A stretch of DNA of 64,000 nt from an uncultured Candidatus Saccharibacteria bacterium (GCA_964462785.1 CAYWZA010000001.1:1144-65143); one strand, 5' to 3'; numbered from the stretch's first letter, positions 5,102 to 54,939 are shown. The notes: generated by a model not told the origin, from the sequence alone. A program made the numbers and translations.

Positions 5102-5169
5102 AATATTTTTTGCTGTGTGCTAACCATAGCATAAAAAACTTTTTGTGCTACCGTACAAAATATACCCGT

Positions 5170-5712: not shown

Positions 5713-6584
5713 TCATCACTAAAATCGCCGGTGGCCTCGGAAACCAGATGTTCCAATATGCATTTGGACGCGCGCTTGCACAGCGCAACAAAACTGAATT
5801 GCTTCTCGATATCACCATATTCGAGACATACGAATTCCATCTCTATACGATGGACCATCTCAAAATCGCTGCACGTCCCGCAACGCCACATGAACTTAAG
5901 CCATTCTTACGTAAGCGTCCACGCGGCGGTCGCATCGGACGTCGGATTCTTAATCCGCTTTTCCATGATCCGAAGCTCTATGTGCAGGAGCCGCGGTATA
6001 CATTCGTGCCCGAGATGCTTGCATTGAAAGATCCTTGTTATGTCGACGGGTATTGGCAGTCAGAGAAATATTTTTTGGATATCAAAGATACGTTGCAAAA
6101 GGAATTCACTTTAAAAGAGCCTCTGGGAGAGTATTCGCAGGGCATTGCCAAAAAGATCGCTGCCACAGAGCATCCTGTCTCGTTGCATATACGGCGCGGT
6201 GATTTTGCGCATCATCCGCGATTCAAGATCACCCACGGCGCACGTCCCCTCGCCTACTATGAACACGCGATGGACATCGTCCGCGAAAAAGTGTCCGATC
6301 CGCATTATTTCATATTCTCGGACGACATCGCATGGGCGAGGGAGAACATCAAAACCGGATTCCCGACCGAATTCATAGGCCAAGGACCTGCAAAGAATTA
6401 TGAGGATCTGGAGCTGATGCGGCTCTGCACACACCATGTTCTTTCAAACAGCACCTTCGGCTGGTGGGGCGCGTGGTTATCGGAATTCGAAAAAAAAGGA
6501 TTGAAGATAGCGCCGACACATTGGGCGGCAAAATTCGAATCGACCGACCTGGTACCAGGGCGTTGGACCAAACTTCCTTTCTGA
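5709..6584 (+). CDS. GT11 alpha-1,2-fucosyltransferase
   Basis: N-terminal GGLGNQMFQYA and central HIRRGDF motifs are diagnostic for GT11 (FutC/WbsJ-like). Start overlaps the upstream stop (ATGA). Confidence 0.85.
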   Translation: MIITKIAGGLGNQMFQYAFGRALAQRNKTELLLDITIFETYEFHLYTMDHLKIAARPATPHELKPFLRKRPRGGRIGRRILNPLFHDPKLYVQEPRYTFVPEMLALKDPCYVDGYWQSEKYFLDIKDTLQKEFTLKEPLGEYSQGIAKKIAATEHPVSLHIRRGDFAHHPRFKITHGARPLAYYEHAMDIVREKVSDPHYFIFSDDIAWARENIKTGFPTEFIGQGPAKNYEDLELMRLCTHHVLSNSTFGWWGAWLSEFEKKGLKIAPTHWAAKFESTDLVPGRWTKLPF

Positions 6585-6595
6585 TTTTTGATCTC

Positions 6596-7585
6596 TTATT
6601 TCTTTGGATTTTGCAAATACCACGTGAGAGTCTGCTGCAAACCTTTCCTCAGGGGAATTTTTGCTTCCCATCCCGTATCTTTCTTTATTTTTGAAACATC
6701 AGCGAGACGACGCTTTACACTCCCCTTGGGAGATTTTTTTACTGTGCGTTTCTTGGGGTGCCATTGCATCAGTTCAAAAATATCTTCGACAAGATCCCGA
6801 ATCAGTGTTTCTTCTTTCGTACCAATATGATATGTTCCGCCATCGGTCTTTTCTGATTCCATAACACGCTGAATTGCTTCCACCGCATCATCGATGTAGC
6901 AAAATGAGCGAGTGTCATCCGCGCCGAAAATAGTAAACGGATTTGTCTGCGCACTCACACGCCCGATGATCTCTGGAATTACATGCTCATAGCCTGCGCG
7001 CGGACCATAGAAATTGTGCGGACGCACAATCGACATACGGAAGTTGTATGCATTCGCGTAGTGAATGAAGAACAACTCGCCTATCAGTTTCTGTCCGCCA
7101 TATGACCAGCGTGGATTGTAGGTATCCGCGATCACCAACGGCACATTCTCCGGTGTCGGAAGTGGCAGTGTTCCAAATGCCTCAAGAGCGCTGCCATACG
7201 CTTCGTTTGAGGATGTATAGAGAATTTTTGCTCCTTTCTTCTTATTCTGCGTGCGGAACCAATCCAATGCGTTCATTGTCGTCGAGACACCGATACGCAA
7301 CACTTCATGCGGTATCTCGTAAAAAAGTCGCGTACCATTGATCCCGACCAGATGGTACACATGATCATATCCGCCACCGATCTTCTTCCACGAGCGCGGG
7401 TCTGTCAGATCTGCCTTGATGAACGTGACGTTTGGGCGTGCAATAAGTGCTTTGAAATCATCGTCGTGTCTGCCACGGAAAAAGTTATCGGCGATGGTGA
7501 TGTTGTATTTATTCTGATCTGCGAGCCTTTTGCCAAGGTGATACCCGACAAACCCCGCCCCACCAGTAATGAGAACGCGAGTCAT
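6596..7585 (-). CDS. NAD-dependent epimerase/dehydratase (extended SDR), UXS/ArnA-like DNFFxGR motif
   Basis: ITGGAGFVGYHLG Rossmann motif, ADNFFRGR, catalytic YGGQK (YxxxK), and NFYGP...HVIPEII. Family confident; the specific reaction (UDP-GlcA decarboxylase, 4-epimerase or GDP-fucose synthase) cannot be decided. Confidence 0.75.
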   Translation of the reverse strand: MTRVLITGGAGFVGYHLGKRLADQNKYNITIADNFFRGRHDDDFKALIARPNVTFIKADLTDPRSWKKIGGGYDHVYHLVGINGTRLFYEIPHEVLRIGVSTTMNALDWFRTQNKKKGAKILYTSSNEAYGSALEAFGTLPLPTPENVPLVIADTYNPRWSYGGQKLIGELFFIHYANAYNFRMSIVRPHNFYGPRAGYEHVIPEIIGRVSAQTNPFTIFGADDTRSFCYIDDAVEAIQRVMESEKTDGGTYHIGTKEETLIRDLVEDIFELMQWHPKKRTVKKSPKGSVKRRLADVSKIKKDTGWEAKIPLRKGLQQTLTWYLQNPKK

Positions 7586-7591
7586 GACTGT

Positions 7592-8383
7592 TTAAAGTAC
7601 CGTCGTCTTGTAGCGCTGGTTAATCTCAACGATTCCCTCAAAAAGCGACAGCCCCTTATCCTGACCAAGCAGCTTGTTTGCAAGAGCAGCGAAAGCTGCG
7701 GTATCTTTCGGAAGGCATGAGCCGCCAAAACCCCGGAAGTGCTTGTTGCAATCGAGATATACATCCTGCACATTACGGTGCTTAACAATGGCATTCTTGA
7801 TCTTTCTATAGTCCGCTCCTGCAGCCTCGCACACATCATAGAATTGATTCGCATATACCACACGCAACGCATTGAATACATTGAGAAAATATTTCGAAAA
7901 TTCTGCTTCGAGCGGCGTTACGATCGAAAACTGTTTCGGCAGAGGTTCGTGCACTTGTTTCAACATATCCGCATCTTCCGGCGTGTATGCCCCGATGATG
8001 CACACATCGTGATTTTCAATGAAATCGACATACATGGCTCGCTCACGCAAAAACTCTGGACAGAAAGCGAATCGCAGTGCCGGATGCCTTTTCGCCAATC
8101 GGTCGGTCGTACCGGGTTCAACAGTCGATTTAATGGTGACCAAACCGCGATATTTTTCCTGCGCCAAGCTTTCCGCCACTTTTTCCACGATCGACACATC
8201 GCATGCACCATCCTGCCCCAACGGAGTAGGAACACAGATAAAAACCAATTCTGTGCCAAGCACGTCATTAAGAGATGTCTCGGGCATTTTCACATCAAAA
8301 ATAGAGACATCGTGACCTATGCGCGTTATGCCGTGCCGCACAGCTGTCCCCACAAGCCCGACGCCGATGATTCCTACACGCAT
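7592..8383 (-). CDS. UDP-glucose/GDP-mannose 6-dehydrogenase family protein, short form lacking the C-terminal UDP-binding domain
   Basis: N-terminal NAD-binding MRVGIIGVGLVG and the catalytic-Cys motif GFGGSCLPKD. The protein ends ~40 aa after that motif (263 aa versus ~390-440 for canonical enzymes). Confidence 0.65.
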   Translation of the reverse strand: MRVGIIGVGLVGTAVRHGITRIGHDVSIFDVKMPETSLNDVLGTELVFICVPTPLGQDGACDVSIVEKVAESLAQEKYRGLVTIKSTVEPGTTDRLAKRHPALRFAFCPEFLRERAMYVDFIENHDVCIIGAYTPEDADMLKQVHEPLPKQFSIVTPLEAEFSKYFLNVFNALRVVYANQFYDVCEAAGADYRKIKNAIVKHRNVQDVYLDCNKHFRGFGGSCLPKDTAAFAALANKLLGQDKGLSLFEGIVEINQRYKTTVL

Positions 8384-8443
8384 ACGTTCACTTTATACAT
8401 GACCAGACTGCGCCCCGCAATAAGGGTACGGAATGATGCGTCT

Positions 8444-10045
8444 TCATAAATCCTCGGTCCTCGGCACCAATTTCGTAAACAGTCTTTGATTGGGCCGTAA
8501 GATTTTGTTTTCCTGCGCAACAAAGATGTTAAACCACTCATCGAATGCTACGATTTCTTGCGAAAGAAGGGGGCTGCGGGTGTACTGCCGTTGATTTTGA
8601 TATTCCCAGAACCGGAGATTGTAATATTTGTACCAATATATATCGAGCGCCGACCAATCAAGTGCAATGAAGCATTCGCGGTATACCTCCCACCCGTGCG
8701 CTATGGTCCATTTCAGATCCCAACCCCTCTTTTTTAGGAATGCCGTAGGGATGTACATTTCAACCAGGTAATGCTCATATTCTTGTCCCTTGGCGATGGG
8801 TGGGGCGCTATAGTAGTCGACAATATCTTCAGCCGCACCAAATAAGAATTCGCCATACTGATATGGCTGATACGTATTGCTTCCCGTACCGAATAGTATG
8901 CGCGCCTTTTGCTTCGAGCGACTGCTTGGCGGGAAATATTTCAGCAGATTGCACATCGTCTCCATTGCTCGCGCATTATAAATACGGATGTCAGTTCTCT
9001 GCTTCACGATATACTGCGCACCCAATTCTTTCGCTCTCTTAACCCCGGCGAGCCCCGAGGCGAGCTGCATGTTTGTGTTGCCTGGACCACCGTACTCGGG
9101 CTTCCTGCTTGTCACAACCTCCGCTCCGGCATTGCGTAACTGTTCAAGTACCTGCGCGTCTTCATCGTCCCAGGTGGAAACCACAAGCTGAACCTCCGGA
9201 AACACTTTTCGATAGAGGCGGATTGTTTCGAGCGTAAAGTTACGCTTATGCATGATGGGGCCCTGCATCATAATGGCGCACCGTGGGTACTCTTTGAGCA
9301 CATCGGCTTCAAGTGTGTAGTCGCGTGCGTAGAGTGGCCGCATGTGAAGCGATATAAGCTGGCCAGTAATACTCTCGAGCACATAGATGAGCGTGTAGAG
9401 CGGTAGCGTGCGTATCTTGAAGCGCAAAAGGCCGATCCGATTGCGCAGATAGTATATCGGCTTCCAGCGTCGAAAAACGCGCATCCTTGGCTCTTTTTTT
9501 ACAGCATCAACAGCTGTGCGGACCTGCCGTGGACGATCGGTCACAAAAAAATCTGGTTCTAGGGTGAGAATTGCTTGTACCGCTCGCTTGAAGGTTTCGT
9601 CCGGTTCGTGCTGTTGCGTATTATAGGAGACGACGACTTTTTGGTTTTGATGTCTTGCATTTGTAATGGCCTGTTCTAGCTCGGCAAAAAGAGTATCGCT
9701 AGATGCCGTTCTTTCTTCCACCTCAAGCCAAAGACAGGCATCTGTTTTTTCCTTTTCTATAAGTAGCGTTGCTTGGGGGAACAAAGCGAGCATTTCAATT
9801 GCATGCGCACGGACCATTTCAGAAGTGTTTTTTGTTGTATGTACAGCAAAGAACGTATCATACTCCATCCGCCGCCCGAGAAAGTACACGAAAAGCCCCA
9901 TTAGACGATCAAAGGCATCCTCGTCTGTGTCTGGGAGCGGCGCTAGTATCCCATATCCCTCTTTGAGGGCTCTGCCATACCATGCATAAGGATCGTGAGG
10001 TGGCTTCTCTTTTTCTTTTGGGGGACGCGCAAGTACAACAACCAT
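8444..10045 (-). CDS. Two-domain protein of unknown function; C-terminal half resembles WavE-type LPS/polysaccharide biosynthesis proteins
   Basis: 533-aa ORF with no recognisable N-terminal domain. The C-terminal ~280 aa (…IMMQGPIMHKRNFTLETIRLY…VVSTWDDED…GNTNMQLASGLAGV…) matches my memory of the WavE family; this call is low-confidence. Confidence 0.3.
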   Translation of the reverse strand: MVVVLARPPKEKEKPPHDPYAWYGRALKEGYGILAPLPDTDEDAFDRLMGLFVYFLGRRMEYDTFFAVHTTKNTSEMVRAHAIEMLALFPQATLLIEKEKTDACLWLEVEERTASSDTLFAELEQAITNARHQNQKVVVSYNTQQHEPDETFKRAVQAILTLEPDFFVTDRPRQVRTAVDAVKKEPRMRVFRRWKPIYYLRNRIGLLRFKIRTLPLYTLIYVLESITGQLISLHMRPLYARDYTLEADVLKEYPRCAIMMQGPIMHKRNFTLETIRLYRKVFPEVQLVVSTWDDEDAQVLEQLRNAGAEVVTSRKPEYGGPGNTNMQLASGLAGVKRAKELGAQYIVKQRTDIRIYNARAMETMCNLLKYFPPSSRSKQKARILFGTGSNTYQPYQYGEFLFGAAEDIVDYYSAPPIAKGQEYEHYLVEMYIPTAFLKKRGWDLKWTIAHGWEVYRECFIALDWSALDIYWYKYYNLRFWEYQNQRQYTRSPLLSQEIVAFDEWFNIFVAQENKILRPNQRLFTKLVPRTEDL

Positions 10046-10119: not shown

Positions 10120-12984
10120 TTATTCTCTACGCCGACCGGTCACGACGAACAAAGCACCCTCTGAAGCAATGTTCCCAAGCCACGAGATCTGGGTCAGGGC
10201 GCGCATGAGACCGGATCCGGAACTGGTTTCCTCAAATAGATTTGCCCCTGTCTTGCTCCCACCAGTGCCGATGATAGCTGGATGTGAATTCAAGTACTCA
10301 ACGTCATTTTCCTTAAACCACTCGAGTACTTCGCCGAGCGAATGCCATGTCTCGTGTGGATTGTAATACTGGTCTTTCACCCAAATATCCGCCTTGCGCG
10401 CATCGCGAATGCGATTGCGAACGACATAGTCGATGCGAGTCCCGAAAACCTTGATCAACTTCGAGCGTATCCAGGTGGGGATTCGCGCGTAGTTGTTGTA
10501 GAGACCAACAACGATGAGGCCGCCTGGTTTCACCTTCTTTACGATCTCCGCAAACGCCACGCGCGCATCGCGCGTGTGATGCAGGACGCCGGTCGATATT
10601 ACAACATCAAAGCTATTGTCCTGTATGCCGAGCTCAAAGATATTCATCTGCACAAAGCCGACACGATTAACGCTGTTTTTCTTCTTATGATCAACGGCTA
10701 GCTTGAGGCTCGAGAGTGAGAGGTCGACTCCGAGCACGTGATTATTGTTGAGAGAAAGGAAGTGCGACATCTGCCCAGTCCCGCATCCACATTCGAGAAT
10801 CAGCTTATTGAAGCCAATGGAGTCCAGGAGCCCTTTCGCAAACGGATTCTTCTCTCCCCGAACGACCAAATCACCGAAATTCTGCACGCCGTCGTAATTC
10901 GGGAACGGATTCTCCTCATAGAATGCTTTTATCTTGCCTGTCACCGGATCCTTTTCTGCCGATTCTACACCCGAGAGAAGAGATGGAACGCCATCTTTAT
11001 CAACGTAGGGTCCCTTCGCGGTCGTAAATGCCCCCTGCGTACGCAACACTGGGATGCTCTTGGATTCGCCTGGAACCTTCAGGCAGTCCAGGAGCGGCGC
11101 GGGTATCATGCCATCGTCTTTGGGTGCTCTCGACGGTTCGATCCTGTACTGCTCACTCTTGAGTAGGAGGACATTGCCAATAACCAGTGCGTCCATTTCC
11201 GTTTTCATAAAGCACTGGTAGGCATCGCTCGGCGTGAGAACTATCGGCTCATCGCGGACATTAAAACTGGTGTTCACGAGAAGTCCGTAGCCAGTCTTTT
11301 TCTTGAATGCGTCGAGTAGACTCCAGAAACGCTCGTTCGTCTTGCGCGAAACCGTCTGCAAACGAGCTGAATAGTCGAGGTGGGTGACCGCCGGGATATC
11401 GGAGCGCACTGCATTGAGACGCTCTTGTATGGTTCCTCTCGCGGGTGCAGCCAATCGTCGCTCTTGCTTGACCGGCGCGGTGAAGAGCATGTAAGGCGAT
11501 GGAGATCCTACTTCGAAATATTCATTCGCATCTTCCTCCAAGACAGCCGGAGCGAATGGACGGAATCCTTCTCGGTATTTTATCTTTAGGTTCAGCTTCT
11601 TTTGCATGACCGGATTACGCGCGTCAGCCAGGATGCTGCGATTACCCAAAGCTCGCGGTCCCCACTCTGCCCTTCCCTGCATCCAACCAACGATGTTACC
11701 TTCACTAAGGAGCTCCGCCGCACGTTCATACAGTTTTTCCATGCTATCGAATTGTGTGTATGATGCACCAAATCGTCGTAAGTCCTTAAGCGTCTCATCG
11801 TCAGAAAAAGAAGGACCGAGATATGAGCCCTGCATGCTGTCTGTCGCATGCCTATCGAGGGTGCGGGCGCCATCGAAATATATGTGATGAGCTACCAGTG
11901 CCGCACCCAGCGCACCCCCAGCATCGCCCGCAGCCGGCTGTACCCACACCCGATCGAATATCTTGGCGTCAAGTATCTTTTCGTTCGCAACGCAATTAAG
12001 TGCGACACCACCAGCCAAAACCAAATTATTAGCGCCCGTAAGCGTCCGTGCAGTGCGGACGAGACGCAGTAACACTTCTTCGGTCACTTCCTGTATGGCA
12101 AGCGCGAGATCCATATACTCGCTCGACAGTTCATCTCCTGCCATGCGGGGTGGGAGACCGAAGAGCTTTGTCCATTTCTCGTCATTCACGGTGCGTAGCG
12201 AGGTCGCGAACAGGAAATAGGACATGTTCAGAAAGAACGAGCCATCTTCCTTGAGATCAATGAGCTCATCGAAAATTTTCTTTTTGTATTCTTTTACGCG
12301 CATGCTTCCTCGGTTTCCATATGGTGCGAGTCCCATGAGTTTGTATTCGCCATCATTGATCGCAAAACCGCAATAGTATGTAAAAGCCGAATATAAAAGT
12401 CCGAGCGAATGCGGAAACTGCATCTCCTTGATGATGGTGACTTCTTTGTCATGCCCGCGCCCGATGGTCGTGGTCGCCCACTCGCCCACACCATCGACCG
12501 TAAGAATCGCGGCCTCTTCGAACGGCGAGGGGTAAAAAGCACTCGCCGCATGCGATATGTGATGTTCGGGAAAGAGAAGTCGTGGTTTTCTGACGAATTT
12601 CTTTCCTTCGATCTTCTCGAGCTCTTTAAGGAGCACGCTACGAATGAAGAGTTTGTCCTTGATCCATATCGGCATCGACCTCGCGAATCCCGCGAGACCT
12701 TTTGGAGCATATCGATGATACGTCTCCAGAAGACGCTCGAACTTCAGAAGCGGCTTGTCATAAAAGACTATGGCATCGAGATCCGACGGCTTGAGACCGC
12801 ACTCGGAGAGCACATAGCGAGTAGCGTGCTCAGGAAAAGAATCGTCATGCTTGCGCCTCGTGAAGCGCTCCTCGTGAGCCGCCGCAACAATCTTTCCATT
12901 TACGAGAAGTGCGGCGGCGGCATCGTGAAAATACGCCGAAACGCCGAGGATCTTCCTACCCCTTTGATCCATATTCCCCGTCAT
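10120..12984 (-). CDS. NodU/CmcH-family carbamoyltransferase fused to a C-terminal class I SAM-dependent methyltransferase
   Basis: The N-terminal ~600 aa has the carbamoyltransferase/Kae1-like architecture (ILGVSAYFHDAAAALL…HHISHAASAF…ALGNRSIL…). The C-terminal ~200 aa has ILECGCGTGQMSHFL (SAM motif I) and VVGLYNNY. Total length 954 aa. Confidence 0.8.
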   Translation of the reverse strand: MTGNMDQRGRKILGVSAYFHDAAAALLVNGKIVAAAHEERFTRRKHDDSFPEHATRYVLSECGLKPSDLDAIVFYDKPLLKFERLLETYHRYAPKGLAGFARSMPIWIKDKLFIRSVLLKELEKIEGKKFVRKPRLLFPEHHISHAASAFYPSPFEEAAILTVDGVGEWATTTIGRGHDKEVTIIKEMQFPHSLGLLYSAFTYYCGFAINDGEYKLMGLAPYGNRGSMRVKEYKKKIFDELIDLKEDGSFFLNMSYFLFATSLRTVNDEKWTKLFGLPPRMAGDELSSEYMDLALAIQEVTEEVLLRLVRTARTLTGANNLVLAGGVALNCVANEKILDAKIFDRVWVQPAAGDAGGALGAALVAHHIYFDGARTLDRHATDSMQGSYLGPSFSDDETLKDLRRFGASYTQFDSMEKLYERAAELLSEGNIVGWMQGRAEWGPRALGNRSILADARNPVMQKKLNLKIKYREGFRPFAPAVLEEDANEYFEVGSPSPYMLFTAPVKQERRLAAPARGTIQERLNAVRSDIPAVTHLDYSARLQTVSRKTNERFWSLLDAFKKKTGYGLLVNTSFNVRDEPIVLTPSDAYQCFMKTEMDALVIGNVLLLKSEQYRIEPSRAPKDDGMIPAPLLDCLKVPGESKSIPVLRTQGAFTTAKGPYVDKDGVPSLLSGVESAEKDPVTGKIKAFYEENPFPNYDGVQNFGDLVVRGEKNPFAKGLLDSIGFNKLILECGCGTGQMSHFLSLNNNHVLGVDLSLSSLKLAVDHKKKNSVNRVGFVQMNIFELGIQDNSFDVVISTGVLHHTRDARVAFAEIVKKVKPGGLIVVGLYNNYARIPTWIRSKLIKVFGTRIDYVVRNRIRDARKADIWVKDQYYNPHETWHSLGEVLEWFKENDVEYLNSHPAIIGTGGSKTGANLFEETSSGSGLMRALTQISWLGNIASEGALFVVTGRRRE

Positions 12985-31515: not shown

Positions 31516-31608
31516 GGTGCGGATGCTAAATAGTACCATGGCCACGTGTTCTGGACACCTCATACAATTCCCCCTTATACTCACCTCGTGGGTCTTTTTA
31601 TCTCTTTG

Positions 31609-33756
31609 ATGCTTGCTGCGATAGGCTGTGCCACCCTCAGTGCCTCCATAGTACTCGCCTCTTATGGTGCCAACGAAAGCCCTCTCGCAACGCTCTTTAT
31701 CGAGGGAGCGCGTGGGACACTATTCGAGACTAGTATCTTTCTCTTCGTGTGCGCAACTCTGTTTCTCGCATATGCCCTTTCGGCAAGCTTTCGACGCACA
31801 GTGCGCGCGGTATTTGGAAAAACTGATCACCTTTACCAATCCCTGCCGCCCAACACTCGTCTCATTCTGCTATTTTCCTGCGCTCTAGGATTGCTATTTT
31901 CATTGAATGCGGCGGGGATTGTCTATGGATATTTCCATTCAGACGATTTTTCTATGACCGCGCGCGTCGCTATGCATTCATGGGGAGAGCTTATTTGGAT
32001 GCCCTACAGTCAACATGCAATGCCTTTAAACTGGGTCGAGACGTCTTTGTTTTACCACATATTCGGGACGAATCCGCTGCCTTACAACCTATTCCTACTG
32101 CTTATCATCGCATCTCTGCCTTTTGCAGGATTCCTATTCTTGAGGGAACTTGGCTACGGTCGCACGTCATTCTGTATTCTATTTTCTTTATTTGGAACAT
32201 CCGTTATCGCGAGTGAATTTCTTGCTGGGTTTTATGCTCTAGCCATATACCCGCAGGTACTTCTGTTTTTCCTAATCGCACTGTGGACGTATGTCCGCTC
32301 ATACACTTCAGCGAAATATAGACGGCTGCTCCTTTTTATATCGTTACTCTTCATTTTCGCCGCAACATTTTTTGATATCTCAGGCATTTGGACTTCTGGC
32401 GCTTACGTATTGTTCGCATACACACATTGGGTCGCCCGAGGTGGTCAGTGGTCACCCGCAACATTCATCCGTGGCAATACAATTGCAACCACGGGCGCTT
32501 TTTTGATATTTATCACGTATGGACTGTACCTTGTCCAGCTTGCCACAATACAACCCGAGCAATTTCTTGGCAGTGGACAGCCTCTATCCCTGGGGTTGTT
32601 TAAGCAAATGTATGATGTGTATACCGCCGGCACAATCGCCCAACTTTTCCTGCCAAGCGCAGGACTGATTGTAAGTCAACCGCGCTTCCTGCCCTTTTTA
32701 TCCTTGTGGACAATTCTCATGGTGTTTTTGTTTGTTTGTTTTGCAATTCTTTTTTATACGTTTGTACGCCACGCTAATCCCAAAACCCGTGCATACGGGA
32801 TTTTCGTTCTACTTCTTATGCTTGGGACCGGCTTGCTCACGGCACTTGGCCGACCGACAACGCATCCTGCCGCTTTTTTTCCTGTACAACAAATCATTAT
32901 GCCGTTCTTTTGGCTGTGCGTACTCCTCACCATAATGGCGTGCGAGTATGTCCATACCGGTATAGGGGAGGAGCGCACTAAGCGCATTATGGCGGTGCTC
33001 TTGAGTATCATCTTGATCGTATCCGCACAGCATGTATTTGCTTTCTACAAAAACCAAAATGTGCAGGAGGTGTTGGACAGTAAACACAATGTGGAACGAT
33101 TGCAGAATCTGCTTGTACCCGCCCTCAATGAACTCGCCGCGCAAACGAATGATGTGGTCTTTGTGCCGGATGTACGCGGATCGTATATTAATCCGTTTTT
33201 ATTTGGCAAAGACGCCTCCCAGTATCGAGCGTTTCTGAATCTCAGCGACAATATAGCATTCACCGATGTGCGCCACGGTCCGTATGCAGCCTCGACAAGT
33301 CATTATTTTACTGAAGCATTGCAGACGGATGACCGCCTCCGTTCAATATACCTCGCTAATGCTGAAATAGAGGTTGGGTACGGCACTGAACGCATTCAGG
33401 GCACGCAGATACAATTTATCAGTGACGGGACCCGCACTATCGTATTGCAACCACGGACGGTCGACCCACTCAAACAGTATTGGCTCGCTATCGATGTGAG
33501 TGTTCCTGTAGAGCATGAAAAAACCTACCTCCAAATCGGCTTTGGCAATCCCATTAGCAAAGACGCTATGGTTACCATACGACTCGACCAATACAGCAAA
33601 CCACTCCCTGGCGTCACGAAACGCTACACAATTCTTATTGATCTTAATCAAAGTTATGCATTTGCCCTCTCACCACGCGTCACTGATGTAACAATTACTT
33701 TTGCAACTCCGGGGGGGTATACTGTGCACGGATATCGCTTTGCGGAAGTGTTGTAG
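31609..33756 (+). CDS. Polytopic GT-C-type membrane glycosyltransferase candidate (ArnT/PMT/GtrC-like) with large C-terminal extracytoplasmic domain
   Basis: ~12 predicted TM helices in the first ~480 aa followed by a ~250-aa soluble domain. It is divergent from a GtrB-like gene and convergent with a GtrA-like gene. The start is either 31546 (ORF) or the internal M at 31609. Confidence 0.5.
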   Translation: MLAAIGCATLSASIVLASYGANESPLATLFIEGARGTLFETSIFLFVCATLFLAYALSASFRRTVRAVFGKTDHLYQSLPPNTRLILLFSCALGLLFSLNAAGIVYGYFHSDDFSMTARVAMHSWGELIWMPYSQHAMPLNWVETSLFYHIFGTNPLPYNLFLLLIIASLPFAGFLFLRELGYGRTSFCILFSLFGTSVIASEFLAGFYALAIYPQVLLFFLIALWTYVRSYTSAKYRRLLLFISLLFIFAATFFDISGIWTSGAYVLFAYTHWVARGGQWSPATFIRGNTIATTGAFLIFITYGLYLVQLATIQPEQFLGSGQPLSLGLFKQMYDVYTAGTIAQLFLPSAGLIVSQPRFLPFLSLWTILMVFLFVCFAILFYTFVRHANPKTRAYGIFVLLLMLGTGLLTALGRPTTHPAAFFPVQQIIMPFFWLCVLLTIMACEYVHTGIGEERTKRIMAVLLSIILIVSAQHVFAFYKNQNVQEVLDSKHNVERLQNLLVPALNELAAQTNDVVFVPDVRGSYINPFLFGKDASQYRAFLNLSDNIAFTDVRHGPYAASTSHYFTEALQTDDRLRSIYLANAEIEVGYGTERIQGTQIQFISDGTRTIVLQPRTVDPLKQYWLAIDVSVPVEHEKTYLQIGFGNPISKDAMVTIRLDQYSKPLPGVTKRYTILIDLNQSYAFALSPRVTDVTITFATPGGYTVHGYRFAEVL

Positions 33757-48083: not shown

Positions 48084-50207
48084 TTATTCCAAGACCTTTC
48101 CAAAGACTTTCGTTTGCATATCTTTCGCGATCATATCCCAATCATAGTCCCGCTCCACCACCTTGCGAGCATTCTCAGAAATGAGCCTGGCTTTTTCTGG
48201 ATTCATTATTATTTCTTTTACTTTCTTAGCAATCGCTTGCGGATCGTCTGGTGGTACAATCCAGGCAGTCTCCCCATCTACAGCATAATCGGCGATGCCT
48301 CCGACGCCGGACGTGACAAGTGGCAATCGTGATGCCAGTGCCGATACAAACGCATTACCAAGTCCCTCTGAGCGCGACGGGGCTACGAAGATATCACTGG
48401 CTTTGCGATAGAGCGTAACGACAGATCGATCAACACGACCCGTGAAAATCACTCGGTCCTTGAGATTCAAAATGCGAGCAAGGTCTTTGAGCTTCGCTTC
48501 ATCTTCTCCATCACCTACAGCGACGAAAGTGATGTTTTTGGGTAAGTGCTCAAGCGCACGGATGATGGTGTCAAAGCCTTTCTGGTGCACCAGGCGCGAC
48601 GTATTCACGAGGAAGATGTCTCCCTCTTTCTTTCCGAGTTCTTTCTTCATCTCATCGATCTGATGTTGCGTGAAAGTCTCTTTGAGATCATTCGGGTTGG
48701 CGCCGTTCTTCACGAGAACGATTTCACCTGTATATCCCATCGAGCGCGCCCAACCGCTTAAATAGTTCGAGATACTCTGCACTATGTCGGCACTCGTGAA
48801 CGCGCGTTTAAAAAGTGGCCACGCTGGACGCATCACCCGCTCAATGTGCTCGATCGGATCACCCTCCTGAAGGGTAAGAACATACGGGGTGCGCGGCGAG
48901 AACAGTTTAAAAATTGCTGCAGGAATGCCTGCTGAGTGTGCCATCATGGACCAGATGCCGTCGTAGCGGTATCTCGCATGGAGCTGAAGCCCTTTCAACC
49001 CGCCAAGGATCTGAAACAGGTACTTGTTCATCTTGAGAATGAATTTTCCGCCATAATCCCTGAATGCTGGGTCAGGCACCCCAAAACCAATTCGATGCAC
49101 CAGCACATTCCCATATCGCTCCACACGCGGAATGTTCGAATTCCACCAGCACGTCACCATATGAAACTCGATATCCTGCGGTGAAATACGATCGGTGATC
49201 TCCTTGATTGCCGGCTCTGCACCGCCGTGAAAATTCGGATAATACGCGAGCGAAAAAATGAGTACTCGTTTCTTGGGTTTAAGGTTTACGAATTCAGTCA
49301 TATCCTGACGTCGTGTGTGTGCCTCAGTAGTTTTGAGCATTTTCACATACTCTGCAAGTGTGTGGTGTTGTCGCCAGCCAAGCGCTTCGAGCTTGGAAGT
49401 GTCTACAGATTCGGACGACCGCGTTGATTTTGTGGGTGATGAATATTCCAAATGTCCGCCGAACATGCGTGCAACATCGAGCAGGCTGAGTGTCTCCTTG
49501 GCACAAATACCGAACTCATCGTTCTGCCCTTTGTTTCCCGCGAGCACGATTCCCTCGACCGTGTCGAGAACGTGTGTGAAAGCCCGCTTTTGGTTTCCCG
49601 AACCTGCAATACGATGCGGTGTTCCATGGAGCCAGTTCTGATGTAATATTTCGATGAGCGTGCCATACTGATCTCCCCGCTCTCGTGGACCGTATACATT
49701 GTAGAAATAGACAATCGCGTACGGCAGCTCAAACCACCGCGCATACTGCACCACAAGCTCACTCATTGCCGCCTTGGACCACGTGTACGGCGCAAGATTT
49801 CTTCCCTCAATGCCATCCTCATCCCGAAAAGTGAACTTGGTCGAGGAACCCGCATAGACAAACTTACAACGCTTTTCACGCCAATACTCAAGTACACCGA
49901 GGGTGCCAAGGAGATTCAGATCGAATGTCACCTGTGGCTCGGTGAGCGAATGCCGCACCCGAGAATATTCCCCTAGGTGGTAGATGATATCCGGATCTTC
50001 CGGGATGAGCTTTGCAATATCTTTTGTATGCCCGCGCCGATACTCCACACCCTCTACATGATTGCTTTCCGACCCGGTGAAATAGTTGTCGAGAGAAATA
50101 ACACGATGACCGTCCTTTGCTAGACGTTCACAAAGATGGGAGCCAATAAACCCAGCTCCGCCTGTCACGACGACTGTCTTTCTAGGCTGCACCAAAATAT
50201 AATACAA
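48084..50207 (-). CDS. Fusion protein: N-terminal UXS/ArnA-like NAD-dependent epimerase/dehydratase + C-terminal GT4 glycosyltransferase
   Basis: N-terminal VVVTGGAGFIGSHLCERL, DNYFTGS and YTWSKAA (YxxxK) over ~300 aa. Then a GT-B domain with …SRSEGLGNAFVSALASRLPLVTSGVGG… (E-X7-E-like). Total 707 aa. Confidence 0.8.
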   Translation of the reverse strand: MYYILVQPRKTVVVTGGAGFIGSHLCERLAKDGHRVISLDNYFTGSESNHVEGVEYRRGHTKDIAKLIPEDPDIIYHLGEYSRVRHSLTEPQVTFDLNLLGTLGVLEYWREKRCKFVYAGSSTKFTFRDEDGIEGRNLAPYTWSKAAMSELVVQYARWFELPYAIVYFYNVYGPRERGDQYGTLIEILHQNWLHGTPHRIAGSGNQKRAFTHVLDTVEGIVLAGNKGQNDEFGICAKETLSLLDVARMFGGHLEYSSPTKSTRSSESVDTSKLEALGWRQHHTLAEYVKMLKTTEAHTRRQDMTEFVNLKPKKRVLIFSLAYYPNFHGGAEPAIKEITDRISPQDIEFHMVTCWWNSNIPRVERYGNVLVHRIGFGVPDPAFRDYGGKFILKMNKYLFQILGGLKGLQLHARYRYDGIWSMMAHSAGIPAAIFKLFSPRTPYVLTLQEGDPIEHIERVMRPAWPLFKRAFTSADIVQSISNYLSGWARSMGYTGEIVLVKNGANPNDLKETFTQHQIDEMKKELGKKEGDIFLVNTSRLVHQKGFDTIIRALEHLPKNITFVAVGDGEDEAKLKDLARILNLKDRVIFTGRVDRSVVTLYRKASDIFVAPSRSEGLGNAFVSALASRLPLVTSGVGGIADYAVDGETAWIVPPDDPQAIAKKVKEIIMNPEKARLISENARKVVERDYDWDMIAKDMQTKVFGKVLE

Positions 50208-50241: not shown

Positions 50242-51690
50242 TCATGCAATTTCCTGAATATCCCATTCTTTGTTGCCGGCGGTGCCGCTGGTGCGGGAGG
50301 CGAAGTATGCACCGGTGGCACCGATCGCTATGAGAGCGACGAGGGCAATCGTCCACATGTTGATAATCCCGTCTTCTTGCGCCTGAATCGGGGTTGCAGC
50401 CGCTGCGGCAGCGCGGAGTTGTAGCTCAGGTTCTTCAACTGGTTCTGTTTCGACAACAGACGCCGGGGCAGATGGCACAGCGCGCGGTGCTTCTTTTGCT
50501 TGTGCAGATGCCTTTGGCTGCGCAGCTGGCGCATGAATGATCGCGGGCTTTGCTGGTAAGGTGGCGATAGCCACCGAGCCGTTTGGATATAGTAGTGCGA
50601 ACCCTGCCACCGCCTCAAATCCGAGTGACGCGGGTGGAATGATAATTCGCTCATTCGTGAGCACGACAGTATCTTCTGGAATGTGAAAAATATGTTCGCT
50701 ACTCTTTATCATCCACAGCGACAGATCGAGGTCGGTCGAGTCAGTATTTTCAATCACCGCGCTGCCGTCAGGAAGTGTGGCGAGCGCGAATGCCGCAGGC
50801 TTGGCTGTGACGATTACGCGATCCGTCGCGGAGTGTGTATCTGCCGATGCATTGAGGGTGACCACATAGCGCCCCGGATGCGCAAACGCATGCAGCACAC
50901 GTGATCCCTCAATGGCTTTTCCATCACCAAAGTTCCACACAAAGCGCACGCCGAGAGGACCCATCGGCTCCCCCGCTTTCGTTGCCGCCTTAGCTTCAAA
51001 TATCGTATCTGCTCCCACGATCACTGCGCGATCCTCGCCGGCAAATGCGAGCATGTTGGATTCAAAGGTATAGCCAGAGCTCGAACTTTGCGTTTGTGTT
51101 TGTTGCGAAGTGGTAGTGGCGCTCTGCGCTGTGCTTGTGTTGCTCGATGCACTTGCAACAAGCGTGCCGGTACTGGGCGTGGGCGATGCAGGAATTAGTG
51201 TGCCGCTCCCCGCACTCCCGCGATGCAAGCTATTACCATCACCCGCAGCGCCGCTGCTTTCGATGTAGCTCACGGTATCAACAGTTGTTCCATCAGCATT
51301 GACGAGCGAGACAGTGTCGCCGGTGTTGTTCATCGCAAGCACGGTATCGATAACATTCGACGCGGATGGGTATGCGTTTGCAAATAAGGATGCATCTGAC
51401 GCGAGGATCAGATACCCACCACTGGGAATACTCATTGAGCCTTTGCTCCCATTTTCCGGCGGCTCGTTGAATACGTGATTCGAGCCGTCATTAATTTTCC
51501 ATCCAGTGATATCGACTGCTGATCCGCTGGCATTAAAAATTTCCACCCATTCATTGCCGGTATCCGTACCGGCGGGGTCGTACATGATTTCGCTGATGAC
51601 TACCTGCGCAAAGGCGCTCGTGGGAGAAAAAAGCAGTGCCCCAACAAGAAGACTGATATAGGATCCTATGCTAATCGAGCGCTCCATCAT
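50242..51690 (-). CDS. Membrane-anchored surface protein with lamin-tail domain (LTD) and PKD domain
   Basis: Signal peptide (ISLLVGALLFSPTSAFA); LTD core VVISEIMYDPAGTDTGNEWVEIFNASGSAVDITGWKINDG; PKD-like VRFVWNFGDGKAIEGSRVLHAFAHPGRYVVTLNA; C-terminal TM (WTIALVALIAIGATGAYF). The ORF track extends it to 52338 by reading an alternative frame across the neighbouring gene's low-complexity tail; I place the start at MMERS 51690. Confidence 0.6.
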   Translation of the reverse strand: MMERSISIGSYISLLVGALLFSPTSAFAQVVISEIMYDPAGTDTGNEWVEIFNASGSAVDITGWKINDGSNHVFNEPPENGSKGSMSIPSGGYLILASDASLFANAYPSASNVIDTVLAMNNTGDTVSLVNADGTTVDTVSYIESSGAAGDGNSLHRGSAGSGTLIPASPTPSTGTLVASASSNTSTAQSATTTSQQTQTQSSSSGYTFESNMLAFAGEDRAVIVGADTIFEAKAATKAGEPMGPLGVRFVWNFGDGKAIEGSRVLHAFAHPGRYVVTLNASADTHSATDRVIVTAKPAAFALATLPDGSAVIENTDSTDLDLSLWMIKSSEHIFHIPEDTVVLTNERIIIPPASLGFEAVAGFALLYPNGSVAIATLPAKPAIIHAPAAQPKASAQAKEAPRAVPSAPASVVETEPVEEPELQLRAAAAAATPIQAQEDGIINMWTIALVALIAIGATGAYFASRTSGTAGNKEWDIQEIA

Positions 51691-53674
51691 CGCCGTAGAG
51701 TACTTTACGCAACTCCGCAGGGTCAACTCCACGCGTTGGTTGCTGTGTGTTCTGTTGTGGGGACTGCGGGTTTTGTGGGGGTTGAGGTTTTGATGGAGGA
51801 GGTTGAGTTGGTTGGCTTTGGTGTTGTGGGGCGGATTGGCGCTGTGCCGGTGCTGTATGCTGCTGCGGAGCTGGTGCGGGGCGGGGCGTTGGCGGTGTGG
51901 GCTGTTCCACAAACTGCCGTGCGTGCTGCAAACCATTTGATTTGTTTTGCTGTGGTGCCGCAGGATTGGAACGAGCAGAGGCAATCGCGTCTTTGAGTGC
52001 ACTGCGCGCATCTGGCTGAGCTGTCGATGGACGTTGTTGTTGAGGCTTGGTGTGCATCGTGCGTAAAATATCAGCGGGGCTTTTTTGCTGATGTATCTCG
52101 GGCAATATTTCGTGTTTACGCTCAGGAGGGCGCGGAGCAGTGGGCGCCGAGCGCGCCGCAATGGGCGCTGGTTGCGGCTGCCCCTCGGGGCGAGGTGGGC
52201 GCGCGTCGCGCTGTACATCCGGACGCGGAAACTGTGCCGCGGGAGCAAGCGGCACGGGTGGTGGTGGCGCCTCATCTCTCGGTCGCGTGCCATATGTTGT
52301 TCCGACGCTTTTTGTTGCCGGCTTTTGTCCTTTGGCACTGTCTACCTTGTGCTTTTCTTTCGCCGCCACCTGCCACTTTTCACCCGCCTCATTCACCTCT
52401 CGCTCAACTACCTCGCGCGCTCTGCCGTAGCGATGGCGCGTCCAGTGCATGATGTCTTCACGATACGATTCACTCGGCGCCTCGACGGGCGAGAGCGTGT
52501 GCGCAGAAAACGGCGCGGAGCCGACGCCATCAATCATAAGATTGAGATAAATATCACCGCGTCCAAGACCCACCATGTCTTCAGGTAAAAATGTGGGCCC
52601 GAAGACCGGTTCCAGGAATTGCGCGTCCATAGGACCGACGCGGAAAATGATAGTTGTGCCCACGTTGCCGAATACAGCGTTTCGTACCTCCTCTTCCATC
52701 TGTTCGATGTATTGATTTGCAATGGTGAGACACAGTTTATATTTGCGCGATTCTGAAAGAATATTTTCAAACGCGCGATTGGAAACGTTTTGAAATTCGT
52801 CGACGTAGAAATAGCAGTTCGGGAGCTTAGCCATGGTCGCCGGAGACTCTTCGGCGCGCGAAAGCGCGGCAAGATATATTTTGATCACGAGCATGCTTCC
52901 CAACAGTGCGGAGTTTGCCTCACCCATACGCCCCTTTGAAAGATTCACGATGATGATTTTTCGATCGTCCATCATTTGCCGGAAATCGAATGTTGATTTC
53001 GCCTGACCGAGAATGTTGCGAATGAGCGGGTTTGATACAAACTGCCCGATTTTATTTTGAATCGCGGGCGTCGCGTCCTGTGTATATTTATCCGAATAGC
53101 CGGCAAACTCTTCTTTCCAAAACATCGCAACGATTGGGTCGGTCACATGCTTCACGACTTCCTCGCGAAACGCTTTGTTTACGAGCATACGATTCACGTC
53201 GATGATGGTCGCGCCCGGGTATTCGAGCAATGCAAACAGTGTGTTTTGCAAAATATATTGCATGCGTGCGCTCCACGCGTCCGCCCAGATGCGCTCAAAG
53301 ACTCCCATGAGCCCCGCCACGACTTTGTGGCGGTTGTCGTAGCCGACATCTTCGAGAATGTTGAAGCCAATGGGGTATTCGGTATCAAAGGGCGCAAAAT
53401 ACATCACGTCTTTGACGCGATCCTGCGGCACGAAATCGAGCAGCTTTTCCGCGGTGCTGCCGTGCGGGTCGATAAAGATCATGCTCTCCCCGTTCTGAAT
53501 GTCCTGAATTGCCATGTTTTCGAGCAGGGTGGATTTACCCATACCGCTCTTGCCGATCACATACATGTGTTTATCCCTATCCTTGGCGCGTATGCCAAAC
53601 GCCACGTGCTTCCCGCGCGTGTGTGTTGCCGCCAAAAACGTGATCCGTTCAGGATCCGGAGTCCACTGGTTCAT
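51671..53674 (-). CDS. VirD4/TraG/TraD-like (type IV coupling-protein-like) P-loop ATPase without N-terminal TM segments, with ~230-aa Gln/Pro-rich disordered C-terminal tail
   Basis: MYVIGKSGMGKSTLLENM (Walker A) then IFIDPHGS (DPxG block as in T4CPs); FYVDEFQNV (Walker B); SRKYKLCLTIANQYIEQ resembles the TraG-D_C block. The first ~40 aa are hydrophilic. The C-terminal tail is dominated by P, Q, A repeats. Confidence 0.5.
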   Translation of the reverse strand: MNQWTPDPERITFLAATHTRGKHVAFGIRAKDRDKHMYVIGKSGMGKSTLLENMAIQDIQNGESMIFIDPHGSTAEKLLDFVPQDRVKDVMYFAPFDTEYPIGFNILEDVGYDNRHKVVAGLMGVFERIWADAWSARMQYILQNTLFALLEYPGATIIDVNRMLVNKAFREEVVKHVTDPIVAMFWKEEFAGYSDKYTQDATPAIQNKIGQFVSNPLIRNILGQAKSTFDFRQMMDDRKIIIVNLSKGRMGEANSALLGSMLVIKIYLAALSRAEESPATMAKLPNCYFYVDEFQNVSNRAFENILSESRKYKLCLTIANQYIEQMEEEVRNAVFGNVGTTIIFRVGPMDAQFLEPVFGPTFLPEDMVGLGRGDIYLNLMIDGVGSAPFSAHTLSPVEAPSESYREDIMHWTRHRYGRAREVVEREVNEAGEKWQVAAKEKHKVDSAKGQKPATKSVGTTYGTRPRDEAPPPPVPLAPAAQFPRPDVQRDARPPRPEGQPQPAPIAARSAPTAPRPPERKHEILPEIHQQKSPADILRTMHTKPQQQRPSTAQPDARSALKDAIASARSNPAAPQQNKSNGLQHARQFVEQPTPPTPRPAPAPQQHTAPAQRQSAPQHQSQPTQPPPSKPQPPQNPQSPQQNTQQPTRGVDPAELRKVLYGDDGALD

Positions 53675-53694: not shown

Positions 53695-54939
53695 TCAATG
53701 AGTTGCATCTGTAGTACTCGCCAATTCAAGCGCCGCCTTTGTGTATCGATTTGATGGCGCCCAGAGCATCCACGAGGTGAGACCGACATCGTACGTGGCT
53801 TGGATTTGAGCACGCACTTCGACGGGTCCGTAGTCGCCGCCGTAATCAAAATCCTGCAGCCACGGGCGCATCATCGTGCGCGGATATGCTTTTTTAGTAT
53901 AGAGTTGCGGAGTTGTCGTTGGAATTTTTTCACCGCCAAACCACGCGATAGGAGTCGTCGTCGCCTCGGCGCGCCTCACCGCCTCCCCCATCGAGTAATT
54001 CACGACCCCGTACACTTCTTTATTGGGATTGGGATATCCATGGAACTTTGGCGGATAGTGCGACGGATACACCATTGGTGCAATGTAATCAAAATACGGC
54101 ATCGCACGCTCCAAGACCTGCCCAATATTTAAATCATCAGTATTTGTTGTCGTCATGCCAAACAGATCTGCTGAGAGTATGGGTGTGTGTTTATCCTGTT
54201 CTACGCGCACTGCGCGGGAGAGATGCACGAAAAATCGCTCGAGATTTTCTTGGTATGATCCGCGCGAATGCGTGTACGCCACATCTTTCATCGGACCGTC
54301 AGACGGATAGCGAATGTAATCGAAATTGAGCTCATCAACACCGAGTGCATGCGCCTCGTGTGCTATGCCTTCTATATATTTCCAAAACGGCTCGGCGCCG
54401 ACATCGACAAACGCAAGACCTTTGTGATCATGCCACGTCGAGCCGTCGCTTGCTTTTTTCACCGCGTATTCGGGATGTGTTTTTGTATACAGTGGATCTT
54501 GGAACACGGTGATGCGCCCGATGACATAGATGCCGTGGCGATGCATTTCTTTCACCAATTCACGAAATGTTGAGGTGGTACACCCCTTCCCTCCTGCGAT
54601 AGCCACCGTGGATGGAAAAAACACCGTCCCTGTGTAATCTTTCACATCGACAACAATTGCGTTTATTTCCGTTTCGTCTGCGAGCTTAAATAGACTGTCG
54701 CGCAACTCAGACGAGCTGGCGGCACATTGCGACATGTACACCGCTTTCACCGCGTCCGGTGTCGCTACGTGTTCAACCGCAGGCGGTGGCGGAGGCAGAT
54801 CAACCGGCGTCTCTTCTCGTGTAAACGATGCGGGCGCAGACCCAAGACCAACGAGGTGCGCATAATTTGGTGCGAAAAAAGCAACCGCGGCAATCCCCGC
54901 AAACAGCGTTGTCGCAGCGAGCGGCGCTGCGCGTTTCAT
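53695..54939 (-). CDS. Secreted putative glycoside-hydrolase-like TIM-barrel protein (DUF4015/GHL-type), hypothetical
   Basis: Signal peptide, PPPPP linker, then a ~330-aa domain with FDYIRYP and acidic/aromatic blocks reminiscent of DUF4015-type putative glycosyl hydrolases. Low confidence. Confidence 0.35.
   Translation of the reverse strand: MKRAAPLAATTLFAGIAAVAFFAPNYAHLVGLGSAPASFTREETPVDLPPPPPAVEHVATPDAVKAVYMSQCAASSSELRDSLFKLADETEINAIVVDVKDYTGTVFFPSTVAIAGGKGCTTSTFRELVKEMHRHGIYVIGRITVFQDPLYTKTHPEYAVKKASDGSTWHDHKGLAFVDVGAEPFWKYIEGIAHEAHALGVDELNFDYIRYPSDGPMKDVAYTHSRGSYQENLERFFVHLSRAVRVEQDKHTPILSADLFGMTTTNTDDLNIGQVLERAMPYFDYIAPMVYPSHYPPKFHGYPNPNKEVYGVVNYSMGEAVRRAEATTTPIAWFGGEKIPTTTPQLYTKKAYPRTMMRPWLQDFDYGGDYGPVEVRAQIQATYDVGLTSWMLWAPSNRYTKAALELASTTDATH

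Follow-up and report, generated by a model that had tools for sequence, protein, structure and literature searches.

A type IV coupling protein-like ATPase without transmembrane helices, encoded in overlap with an anchored lamin-tail surface protein, suggests a DNA-handling module in Patescibacteria

We analysed a 64,000-nucleotide (nt) stretch of DNA from an uncultured Candidatus Saccharibacteria bacterium (GCA_964462785.1 CAYWZA010000001.1:1144-65143; hereafter the window), and within it a pair of genes at positions 50242-53674 that encode a 667-amino-acid (aa) ATPase and a surface protein. By profile, by sequence search of the PDB and by fold, the ATPase is like a type IV coupling protein (T4CP) rather than like HerA or FtsK. 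Its motifs show a motor domain that is catalytically intact, with the T4CP fold, all-alpha domain included, in the predicted model, and the overlap of the two genes shows translational coupling of the ATPase to the surface protein, which has a predicted C-terminal anchor. These analyses suggest that the two proteins may form a DNA-handling module independent of the classical type IV secretion system (T4SS). The reading that we tentatively favour is of a T4CP-derived motor that may work with a surface DNA receptor without a VirB-type channel, most likely in the import of DNA via ComEC.

Three Pfam models of coupling proteins matched the ATPase above their gathering scores (in brackets), namely TrwB_AAD_bind at 47.3 bits (20.5), T4SS-DNA_transf at 38.5 bits (20.1) and TraG-D_C at 30.5 bits (22; aa 287-353), which bears out the Walker A, DPxG block, Walker B and TraG-D_C-like block described in a first-pass annotation of the window. 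By direct reading, the motifs are a Walker A GKSGMGKS (aa 41-48), IDPHGS (aa 68-73) and a Walker B YFYVDEF (aa 288-294). Among 50 homologues, K47 and S48 of the Walker A and D292 and E293 of the Walker B are invariant, as are R310, K311 and Q321, and ~190 columns of the core (aa 1-430) are invariant in alignments of 22-50 sequences. The AlphaFold2 (AF2) model of the core (predicted local distance difference test (pLDDT) 77.6, predicted template modelling score (pTM) 0.81) has a RecA-like domain, with an eight-helix insertion between core strands at aa 112-236 that makes up the all-alpha domain. By searching this model against the PDB with Foldseek, we found Cagbeta (8dol), DotL (6sz9) and TrwB (1gl6) at the top (E 3e-8 to 1e-6, template modelling score (TM-score) ~0.5, the fold matches of this study reaching TM-scores of only ~0.4-0.5), with DndH-C and HerA ranking below the T4CPs. 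VirB4 was not among the top 50 fold matches, and its profile match (4ag5) reached only E 0.9. TrwB was also the sole match in a PDB sequence search, and identity to solved T4CPs is only 12-13%. The named T4CP equivalogs of NCBIfam (TraD, CD1115-type VirD4 and CedD) scored the ATPase far under their curated cut-offs, the best NCBIfam scores (45.6 bits for a cut-off of 366; 45.5 bits for a cut-off of 250) being local and around the P-loop. With the Pfam models of the HerA and FtsK-SpoIIIE families, DUF87 stayed under its gathering score (22.8 versus 23.2 bits) and FtsK_SpoIIIE gave no match, and no FtsK gamma-like domain was found in the profile scans. The earlier placement among T4CP-like proteins is thereby sustained, as neither profile nor structure searches classified the ATPase robustly as HerA or FtsK.

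The first-pass annotation had also noted that the N-terminal transmembrane (TM) helices are missing, and a hydropathy scan agrees: no TM helix was found in the ATPase, and the Kyte-Doolittle maximum (1.61) falls within a buried helix of the core (aa 253-271). The sequence leaves no space for an overlooked N-terminal extension, as only 20 nt separate the end of the DUF4015 gene upstream from the ATG. Since TM-less T4CPs are a recognised subfamily (PMC7434980), the missing helices do not bar the ATPase from the T4CP superfamily. The 230-aa tail (aa 438-667) has the low-complexity composition that had been reported for it, with 20% Pro, 13.5% Gln and 13% Ala versus 4%, 4% and 8% in the core. In an alignment of 22 homologues this tail is variable low-complexity sequence with three short conserved motifs, RSPADILR (aa 532-539), R-x-ALK-x-AI (aa 557-564) and the C-terminal [ED][VI][SPD]PExLRxVL (aa 650-659), and the C-terminal peptide of the window ATPase is VDPAELRKVLYGDD. 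The C-terminal motif persists in almost all of 80 related loci (the best 80 of >568 ATPase loci from one scan of GTDB species representatives, labelled Kaiser-, Adler-, Zambryski-, Nomura-, Taylorbacteria or Paceibacterota), whether the surface-protein gene is present or not. Co-variation of this motif with the surface protein or with its cytoplasmic tail was considered and rejected, as the motif tracks neither.

The ATPase, called an orphan at first pass, is no rarity. The names carried by its homologues set the window among Patescibacteria, close to Kaiserbacteria. We obtained 20,995 matches to it (5,497 with E < 1e-30) with phmmer over 1.84 billion representatives and at least 8,000 with a word-indexed search, and these >20,000 representative-cluster relatives belong to a family that is near-universal in Patescibacteria according to a recent survey (PMC12102498). 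All representatives at least 52% identical to the window core (74 clusters) are of a short form, with the motor N-terminal, a long tail and no TM helix. Short forms reach down to ~47% identity, interleaved with long forms, of which there are many at 41-51% identity and 750-1,130 aa (P0176-P0270 and P0271-P0390) from Saccharibacteria, Microgenomates, Berkelbacteria, WWE3 and Dojkabacteria. In these long forms, one or two N-terminal TM helices are followed by a ~350-aa domain and then by the motor. By precomputed annotation the middle domain is Pfam DUF8128 (PF26449), for which our literature search found no papers. The AF2 model of DUF8128 (m09521954ae98; P0389, L087 10001-11107; pLDDT 87.9) has a single counterpart by Foldseek, the N-terminal domain of VirB4/TrwK (E 4e-6 to 7e-5, TM-score ~0.4), the next match being at E 1e-3. 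Given this fold match, the long forms resemble a coupling-protein motor fused to a VirB3/VirB4-style N-terminus, and the window ATPase is the motor without the part by which it would be anchored in a membrane complex. That DUF8128 might be encoded by a gene of its own was rejected, as a hidden Markov model (HMM) of six long forms found none in the window or in the 80 loci. The best explanation is that the family is Patescibacteria-wide, vertically inherited and derived from T4CPs, and that the window ATPase is its Paceibacteria short form, which lost the TM helix and DUF8128 and gained a disordered tail ending in a conserved docking peptide.

Four long forms, on Saccharibacteria-type contigs and one Microgenomates contig (L086, L088, L097 and L099), stand in the order (dprA)-topA-(~350-aa sigma70_r4/HARE-HTH protein)-long form, with dprA present in two of the four, and no T4SS or LTD (lamin-tail domain) gene was found near them. 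Pairing of dprA with topA is common in bacteria, and these DNA-related neighbours are for that reason only suggestive. The end of the HARE-HTH gene abuts or overlaps the start of the long-form gene in L097, a prepilin (N_methyl) gene lies just downstream of it in L099, and a Berkelbacteria contig (L098) has two tandem DUF8128 paralogues (4700-7207 and 8001-9484) within a few kb of pilN and pilO.

The stop codon of the window ATPase gene (TAG, 51671-51673) overlaps the start of the surface-protein gene (ATGATGG, 51690) by 20 nt, as first reported, while the gene caller took the second ATG and gave a 17-nt overlap; across all four loci in which genes were called, the overlap ranges from 11 to 47 nt. 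The surface protein has the signal peptide, LTD, PKD domain and C-terminal anchor attributed to it at first pass. In order, these are a signal peptide at aa 1-27 (..SPTSAFA before Q, by eye), an LTD at aa 24-143, a Ser/Thr linker, a PKD domain at aa 217-293, a second, degenerate LTD-like domain at aa ~295-400, an Ala/Pro linker, a TM anchor at aa 445-464 and an 18-aa cytoplasmic tail at aa 465-482 (..NKEWDIQEIA). Pfam scores are 98.7 bits for LTD (gathering score 34.3) and 42 bits for PKD_4, whose match spans aa 217-290. The second LTD is drawn from the equivalent region of an orthologue (P0477, aa 220-265), where the LTD match of 22 bits lies under the cut-off of 34.3. In NCBIfam, aa 11-157 weakly match the N-terminus of the extracellular nuclease ExeM, and neither Pfam nor NCBIfam found a helix-hairpin-helix (HhH) domain in the window protein.

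By homology search with the surface protein, we found positional orthologues in which an HhH domain replaces the first LTD (P0419 and P0477). The P0419 gene comes directly after an ATPase gene whose product is 72% identical to the window ATPase (L089), and P0419 itself shares 53% identity with the window protein over the stretch running from the PKD domain through the cytoplasmic tail; its N-terminal domain scores 74.8 bits with Pfam HHH_3. With the NCBIfam model of the ComEA HhH (TIGR00426, cut-off 53.1), P0419, P0477 and a protein from L055 score 67.9, 66.5 and 63.4 bits. Across 73 species-level loci, which are those with enough downstream DNA for the surface-protein count, the N-terminal module is an LTD in 32, a ComEA-type HhH in 13 and another immunoglobulin (Ig)-like domain in 4, and minimal proteins occur in both of the larger groups (LTD plus anchor in 3/32; HhH plus anchor, ComEA-like, in 3/13). 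HhH variants fall at several separate positions among the LTD variants in a neighbour-joining tree of the ATPase core without support values. More distant LTD relatives bear a PLD-type nuclease or an OB fold. That the LTD may be a DNA-binding ectodomain is best supported by its repeated replacement with an HhH in one protein at one locus. Since its positional orthologues have an HhH and the window protein has none, it may work like ComEA without being a member of that family.

Many members of the surface-protein family share, after the TM anchor, the acidic-aromatic cytoplasmic tail motif [KR]xEW[DN]I[IV]EE (window 50245-50298; orthologues in L006-L084). This motif as a generic sorting signal was rejected, as it was present in no other open reading frame (ORF) across ~1.2 Mb of loci. 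In one clade without the motif the surface protein stops at the TM helix (..AFIFL), and the tail is absent in 28 of the 52 loci that bear the surface-protein gene (L001-L085, including duplicate contigs).

How far the two genes belong together was then estimated from neighbourhoods, all of them from one class of the candidate phyla radiation (CPR) and scored with ad hoc HMMs and stop-to-stop ORFs. The pairing expected from the first-pass annotation stood in part: the surface-protein gene comes right after the ATPase gene in 49/73 species loci, with varying flanks, and the pairing is not obligatory, since the other 24 loci are without it, as are the long-form relatives found in other CPR classes. 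The order that recurs in the 80 loci is rsmI, a small 2-TM protein, DUF4015 (in some loci), ATPase, anchored surface protein (in some loci), epimerase and GT4 (Table 1). The most constant neighbour of the ATPase is the 2-TM protein, found upstream in 64 of the 68 loci whose upstream DNA extends for 3 kb or more; 14 loci have it right next to the ATPase gene, 12-160 nt away, and most others have one gene in between. In the window this protein is a hairpin with both ends predicted to be cytoplasmic and a loop motif PFLGFPxxW, its gene overlaps the DUF4015 start by 4 nt, and it has no match in Pfam or NCBIfam. By analogy with known TM-less coupling proteins, it is a candidate membrane tether for the ATPase. 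The DUF4015 gene is upstream of the ATPase gene in about half of the related loci (36/74), and its product is likely extracytoplasmic because it has an N-terminal signal-anchor. The majority of the 80 loci also have rsmI on the upstream side of the ATPase gene, to which it is probably unrelated in function. On the downstream side, the epimerase and the GT4 glycosyltransferase are separate genes in relatives (492 and 412 aa in L002; 282 and 398 aa in L004), and the single ORF of the window could be a real fusion or reflect a lost stop codon.

Table 1. Positions of the ATPase gene, its parts and the genes of the conserved block, counted from the first nucleotide of the window.
Feature	Position	Strand	Description and basis
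NAD-dependent sugar epimerase/dehydratase fused to GT4	48084..50207	minus	707 aa; Pfam Epimerase 147 bits, Glycos_transf_1 139 bits
Anchored surface protein	50242..51690	minus	482 aa; Pfam LTD and PKD_4; signal peptide and TM helix by eye
ATPase ORF	51671-53674	minus	667 aa
ATPase C-terminal tail, aa 438-667 and stop codon	51671..52363	minus	disordered, Pro/Gln/Ala-rich; composition
ATPase core, aa 1-437	52364..53674	minus	predicted T4CP-type nucleotide-binding domain with inserted all-alpha domain; Pfam, AF2, Foldseek
DUF4015 putative glycoside hydrolase	53695..54939	minus	Pfam DUF4015 277.9 bits
Small membrane protein	54936..55136	minus	66 aa; two TM helices; translation
rsmI-like methyltransferase (TP_methylase)	55459..56139	minus	Pfam 130 bits; first gene of the block

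Among 48 ORFs from all over the window, Pfam scans identified only surface-protein, Mur-ligase, glycosyltransferase and nucleotide-sugar genes together with a PIF1 helicase, and no T4SS, pilus or competence genes, in line with the first-pass remark that no other T4SS gene is present. Neither a relaxase nor a T4SS gene lies beside the ATPase, be it in the window or in the flanks annotated for L001-L004 and L089, and scans of the window for tRNAs and Rfam families came back empty. Glycan genes dominate the 64 kb, which is an unusually large glycan island for a genome of probably ~1 Mb. Amid the glycan-biosynthesis genes, at 40593-42272 (minus strand), is the PIF1-family helicase, of 559 aa with a C-terminal HTH_40 domain. 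A 990-aa protein at 37039-40011 (minus strand) has weak LTD and bacterial Ig matches, and is therefore a second LTD-bearing protein 10 kb away from the surface protein. Other products are a carbamoyltransferase-methyltransferase fusion of 954 aa (10120-12984), a 736-aa ORF of no family (31546-33756, plus strand), a 476-aa Fn3/purple-acid-phosphatase-N protein (58206-59636, minus strand) and a 1,072-aa DUF2341 protein (60740-63958, minus strand).

In the mechanism that we tentatively favour, a hexamer of the ATPase would assemble at the membrane, held there by the 2-TM protein, as TraI tethers the TM-less TraJ of pIP501, or alternatively or additionally by the conserved cytoplasmic tail of the receptor or the C-terminal peptide of the ATPase. 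The LTD or HhH ectodomain would capture extracellular DNA at the cell surface, and the ATPase would power or gate its passage across the membrane without a VirB-type channel. Import through a ComEC encoded elsewhere, with the ATPase in a ComFA-like role, would be the most likely direction, and export less likely. Independence of a T4SS is supported by the survey of Quinonero-Coronel et al. (2025; PMC12102498), which reports 5,713 VirD4-type homologues in 2,918/3,035 Patescibacteria genomes versus VirB4 in 2,417 (~80%), places only 148 of the homologues (2.6%) near virB4, and describes the homologue of S. epibionticum as far from virB4 and non-essential, the T4SS being essential. A fuller version of this reading, which we consider somewhat unlikely, has a conjugative coupling protein turned into a T4SS-free housekeeping DNA-transport motor, a soluble hexamer that would be docked on the 2-TM protein, served by an LTD/ComEA-type receptor, and able to import or release DNA. 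Of the first-pass idea of an apparatus for DNA uptake or processing or for cell-cell contact, the DNA part, a proposal as regards uptake, gains support from the replacement of LTD by HhH in 13 species.

Several observations weigh against a DNA-importing pair. No comEC, dprA or comF was detected in the window by the Pfam scans, and a VirB4 T4SS may exist elsewhere in the genome. Four surface proteins carry Ig-like N-terminal modules that are not of a DNA type, and in the 24/73 loci without the surface-protein gene, glycosyltransferase genes follow the ATPase directly. The equal conservation of rsmI in the block means that synteny by itself says little about function, and with rsmI and glycan genes also kept, the adjacency of ATPase and surface protein may be inherited synteny within one class. 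The C-terminal motif of the ATPase is independent of the surface-protein gene and therefore probably binds another partner. DNA binding by the LTD of this family, and any link between the ATPase and the surface protein, the 2-TM protein or DNA, are proposed from sequence, and the direction of DNA movement is purely inferred.

The pair could also be explained by a chromosomal T4SS encoded elsewhere (VirB4/B3/B6/B8 and pilins), of which the ATPase would be the ordinary coupling protein, recruiting protein or DNA substrates to that channel, with the adjacent LTD gene a matter of inherited order. This is the main rival, slightly less likely than the favoured reading. T4CP fold and profiles match, the Pro/Gln-rich tail with a conserved end peptide recalls the TraM-binding tail of F TraD, the equally syntenic rsmI shows that synteny need not mean function, and a third of the species are without the surface-protein gene. 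T4CP genes are moreover often far from virB4, which most Patescibacteria genomes possess (PMC12102498), and TM-less T4CPs that serve a T4SS are known (PMC7434980). Against it, the T4CP homologues occur in more genomes than VirB4, rarely near virB4, and the S. epibionticum homologue is dispensable where the T4SS is essential (PMC12102498). In addition, the TM helix and VirB4-NTD-like domain by which the protein would dock to an inner-membrane complex are precisely what the short form has lost, ~190 invariant core positions are extreme for a substrate receptor, and chance hardly accounts for an overlap with a ComEA-like gene that is retained while the domains are swapped repeatedly. Alternatively, the ATPase could be a soluble translocase that handles the chromosome in division or DNA processing and has nothing to do with the surface protein, comparable to SftA of Bacillus subtilis, which is TM-less and FtsK-like. 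The ATPase belongs to the FtsK/HerA/T4CP superfamily of DNA pumps and is housekeeping-like in being near-universal, chromosomal and highly conserved; mur and dcw genes are nearby (murC at 56555-58051 in the window, murD/murC/murA in L002 and a dcw cluster in L086), and the long forms follow topA, and dprA where present. We nevertheless regard this translocase as unlikely, given the absence of an FtsK gamma-like domain and of any FtsK_SpoIIIE match over threshold in the profile scans, the membrane anchor and VirB4-like N-terminal domain of the long forms, which are atypical for a segregation motor, and the dispensability of the homologue in S. epibionticum (PMC12102498).

A role in the envelope, in which the ATPase would place, extract or secrete the surface protein by way of its acidic tail, or export glycan cargo, fits neighbours that all are envelope genes (DUF4015 hydrolase, surface protein, epimerase and GT4). 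T4CPs are known to recognise C-terminal signals of their protein substrates, the T4SS effectors, and the conserved cytoplasmic tail EWDIxEE of the surface protein resembles such a recognition peptide. It is rather improbable all the same: with its ordinary Sec signal peptide the surface protein does not require a dedicated exporter, the ATPase is invariant although the tail is missing in 28/52 loci and the whole gene in 24, and no T4CP is known to act on glycans. An anti-phage defence or mobile-element ATPase of the HerA or MADS mad8 type was suggested by weak PADLOC matches (HerA models; mad8 at 40.8 bits over aa 13-347, comparable to the T4CP Pfam scores), by a score of 204.6 bits with phrog_5156 (an 824-position profile, the length of a long form) and by relatives of 29-58% identity on seven IMG/VR contigs (L090-L096). 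These seven are the only viral matches in 2.9 million contigs, and L093, a prophage call in an isolate genome, had no match in the phage collection. With no partner defence genes, integrase or mobile-element signatures around the ATPase in the Pfam scans of the window, a chromosomal position fixed across 80 species, and conservation that is extreme rather than diversifying, a defence function is scarcely credible, and a phage origin was dropped as the PADLOC and PHROGs matches are weak or context-free.

If a motor with a surface DNA receptor is the right reading, it would be a new kind of DNA-uptake motor, in the role of ComFA, in a radiation unable to make its own nucleotides. Patescibacteria hold a large share of bacterial diversity, are without nucleotide synthesis and are thought to live on host-derived material. 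Nearly every one of their genomes has one or two coupling-protein homologues, and the link to a surface protein gives the question of their function a testable direction. The alternation of LTD and ComEA-type domains offers comparative support for the long-suspected DNA-binding role of bacterial lamin-tail domains, and the VirB4-NTD-like domain of the long forms is relevant to the divergence between VirB4 and coupling proteins.

Among known systems, the VirD4/TrwB/TraD coupling proteins resemble the window ATPase in having a nucleotide-binding domain with an inserted all-alpha domain, in their Pfam models and in the fold matches to Cagbeta, DotL and TrwB. They differ from it in their N-terminal TM domain and in the T4SS and relaxase genes nearby, and compared with plasmid T4CPs the window ATPase is chromosomal, vertically inherited and far more conserved. 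The C-terminal extension of F TraD is rich in Gln and Pro and ends in a short conserved peptide that binds TraM; the tail of the window ATPase is likewise Gln/Pro-rich and ends in a conserved short peptide. VirB4 and T4CPs share ancestry, and the N-terminal domain of VirB4 (TrwK) has the fold matched by DUF8128 of the long forms, whereas the window ATPase has no DUF8128 and its motor matches T4CPs and not VirB4. A similar arrangement exists in pIP501, in which the TM-less T4CP TraJ works with the small membrane protein TraI (PMC7434980), as the window ATPase may with the nearby 66-aa 2-TM protein. TraJ, however, belongs to a complete conjugative tra operon, whereas the window ATPase has no T4SS operon nearby, and the 2-TM protein, a putative partner, has no detectable similarity to any family.

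In Gram-positive transformation, ComEA is the anchored extracellular DNA-binding receptor and ComFA the cytoplasmic ATP-driven translocase of single-stranded DNA (PMC9747964; bioRxiv 10.1101/2021.10.29.466550). The proposed logic of the window pair, an anchored DNA receptor with a cytoplasmic motor, would be the same, and a bona fide ComEA HhH is present in 13 sister species. In contrast to ComEA, the window protein has an LTD rather than an HhH and is anchored C-terminally rather than N-terminally, and in contrast to ComFA, a DEAD-box helicase, the window motor is a candidate hexamer of RecA-fold T4CP type with no comEC or comF nearby. The 'orphan' T4CP homologues of Patescibacteria, 97% of which lie away from virB4, are the same gene population as the window ATPase, and their exaptation has been suggested as possible (PMC12102498). 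No description of the architecture or the neighbours of these homologues was found in the survey, and the transposon sequencing paper on S. epibionticum does not mention its homologue under the gene names searched. 'Orphan' and 'TM-less' were both known before, and therefore neither is new in itself. What our analyses add to the survey, and what is apparently new as far as we found, is the division into short and long architectures, the VirB4-like fold of DUF8128, the conserved 2-TM neighbour, and the link to a surface partner that carries either an LTD or a ComEA-type domain.

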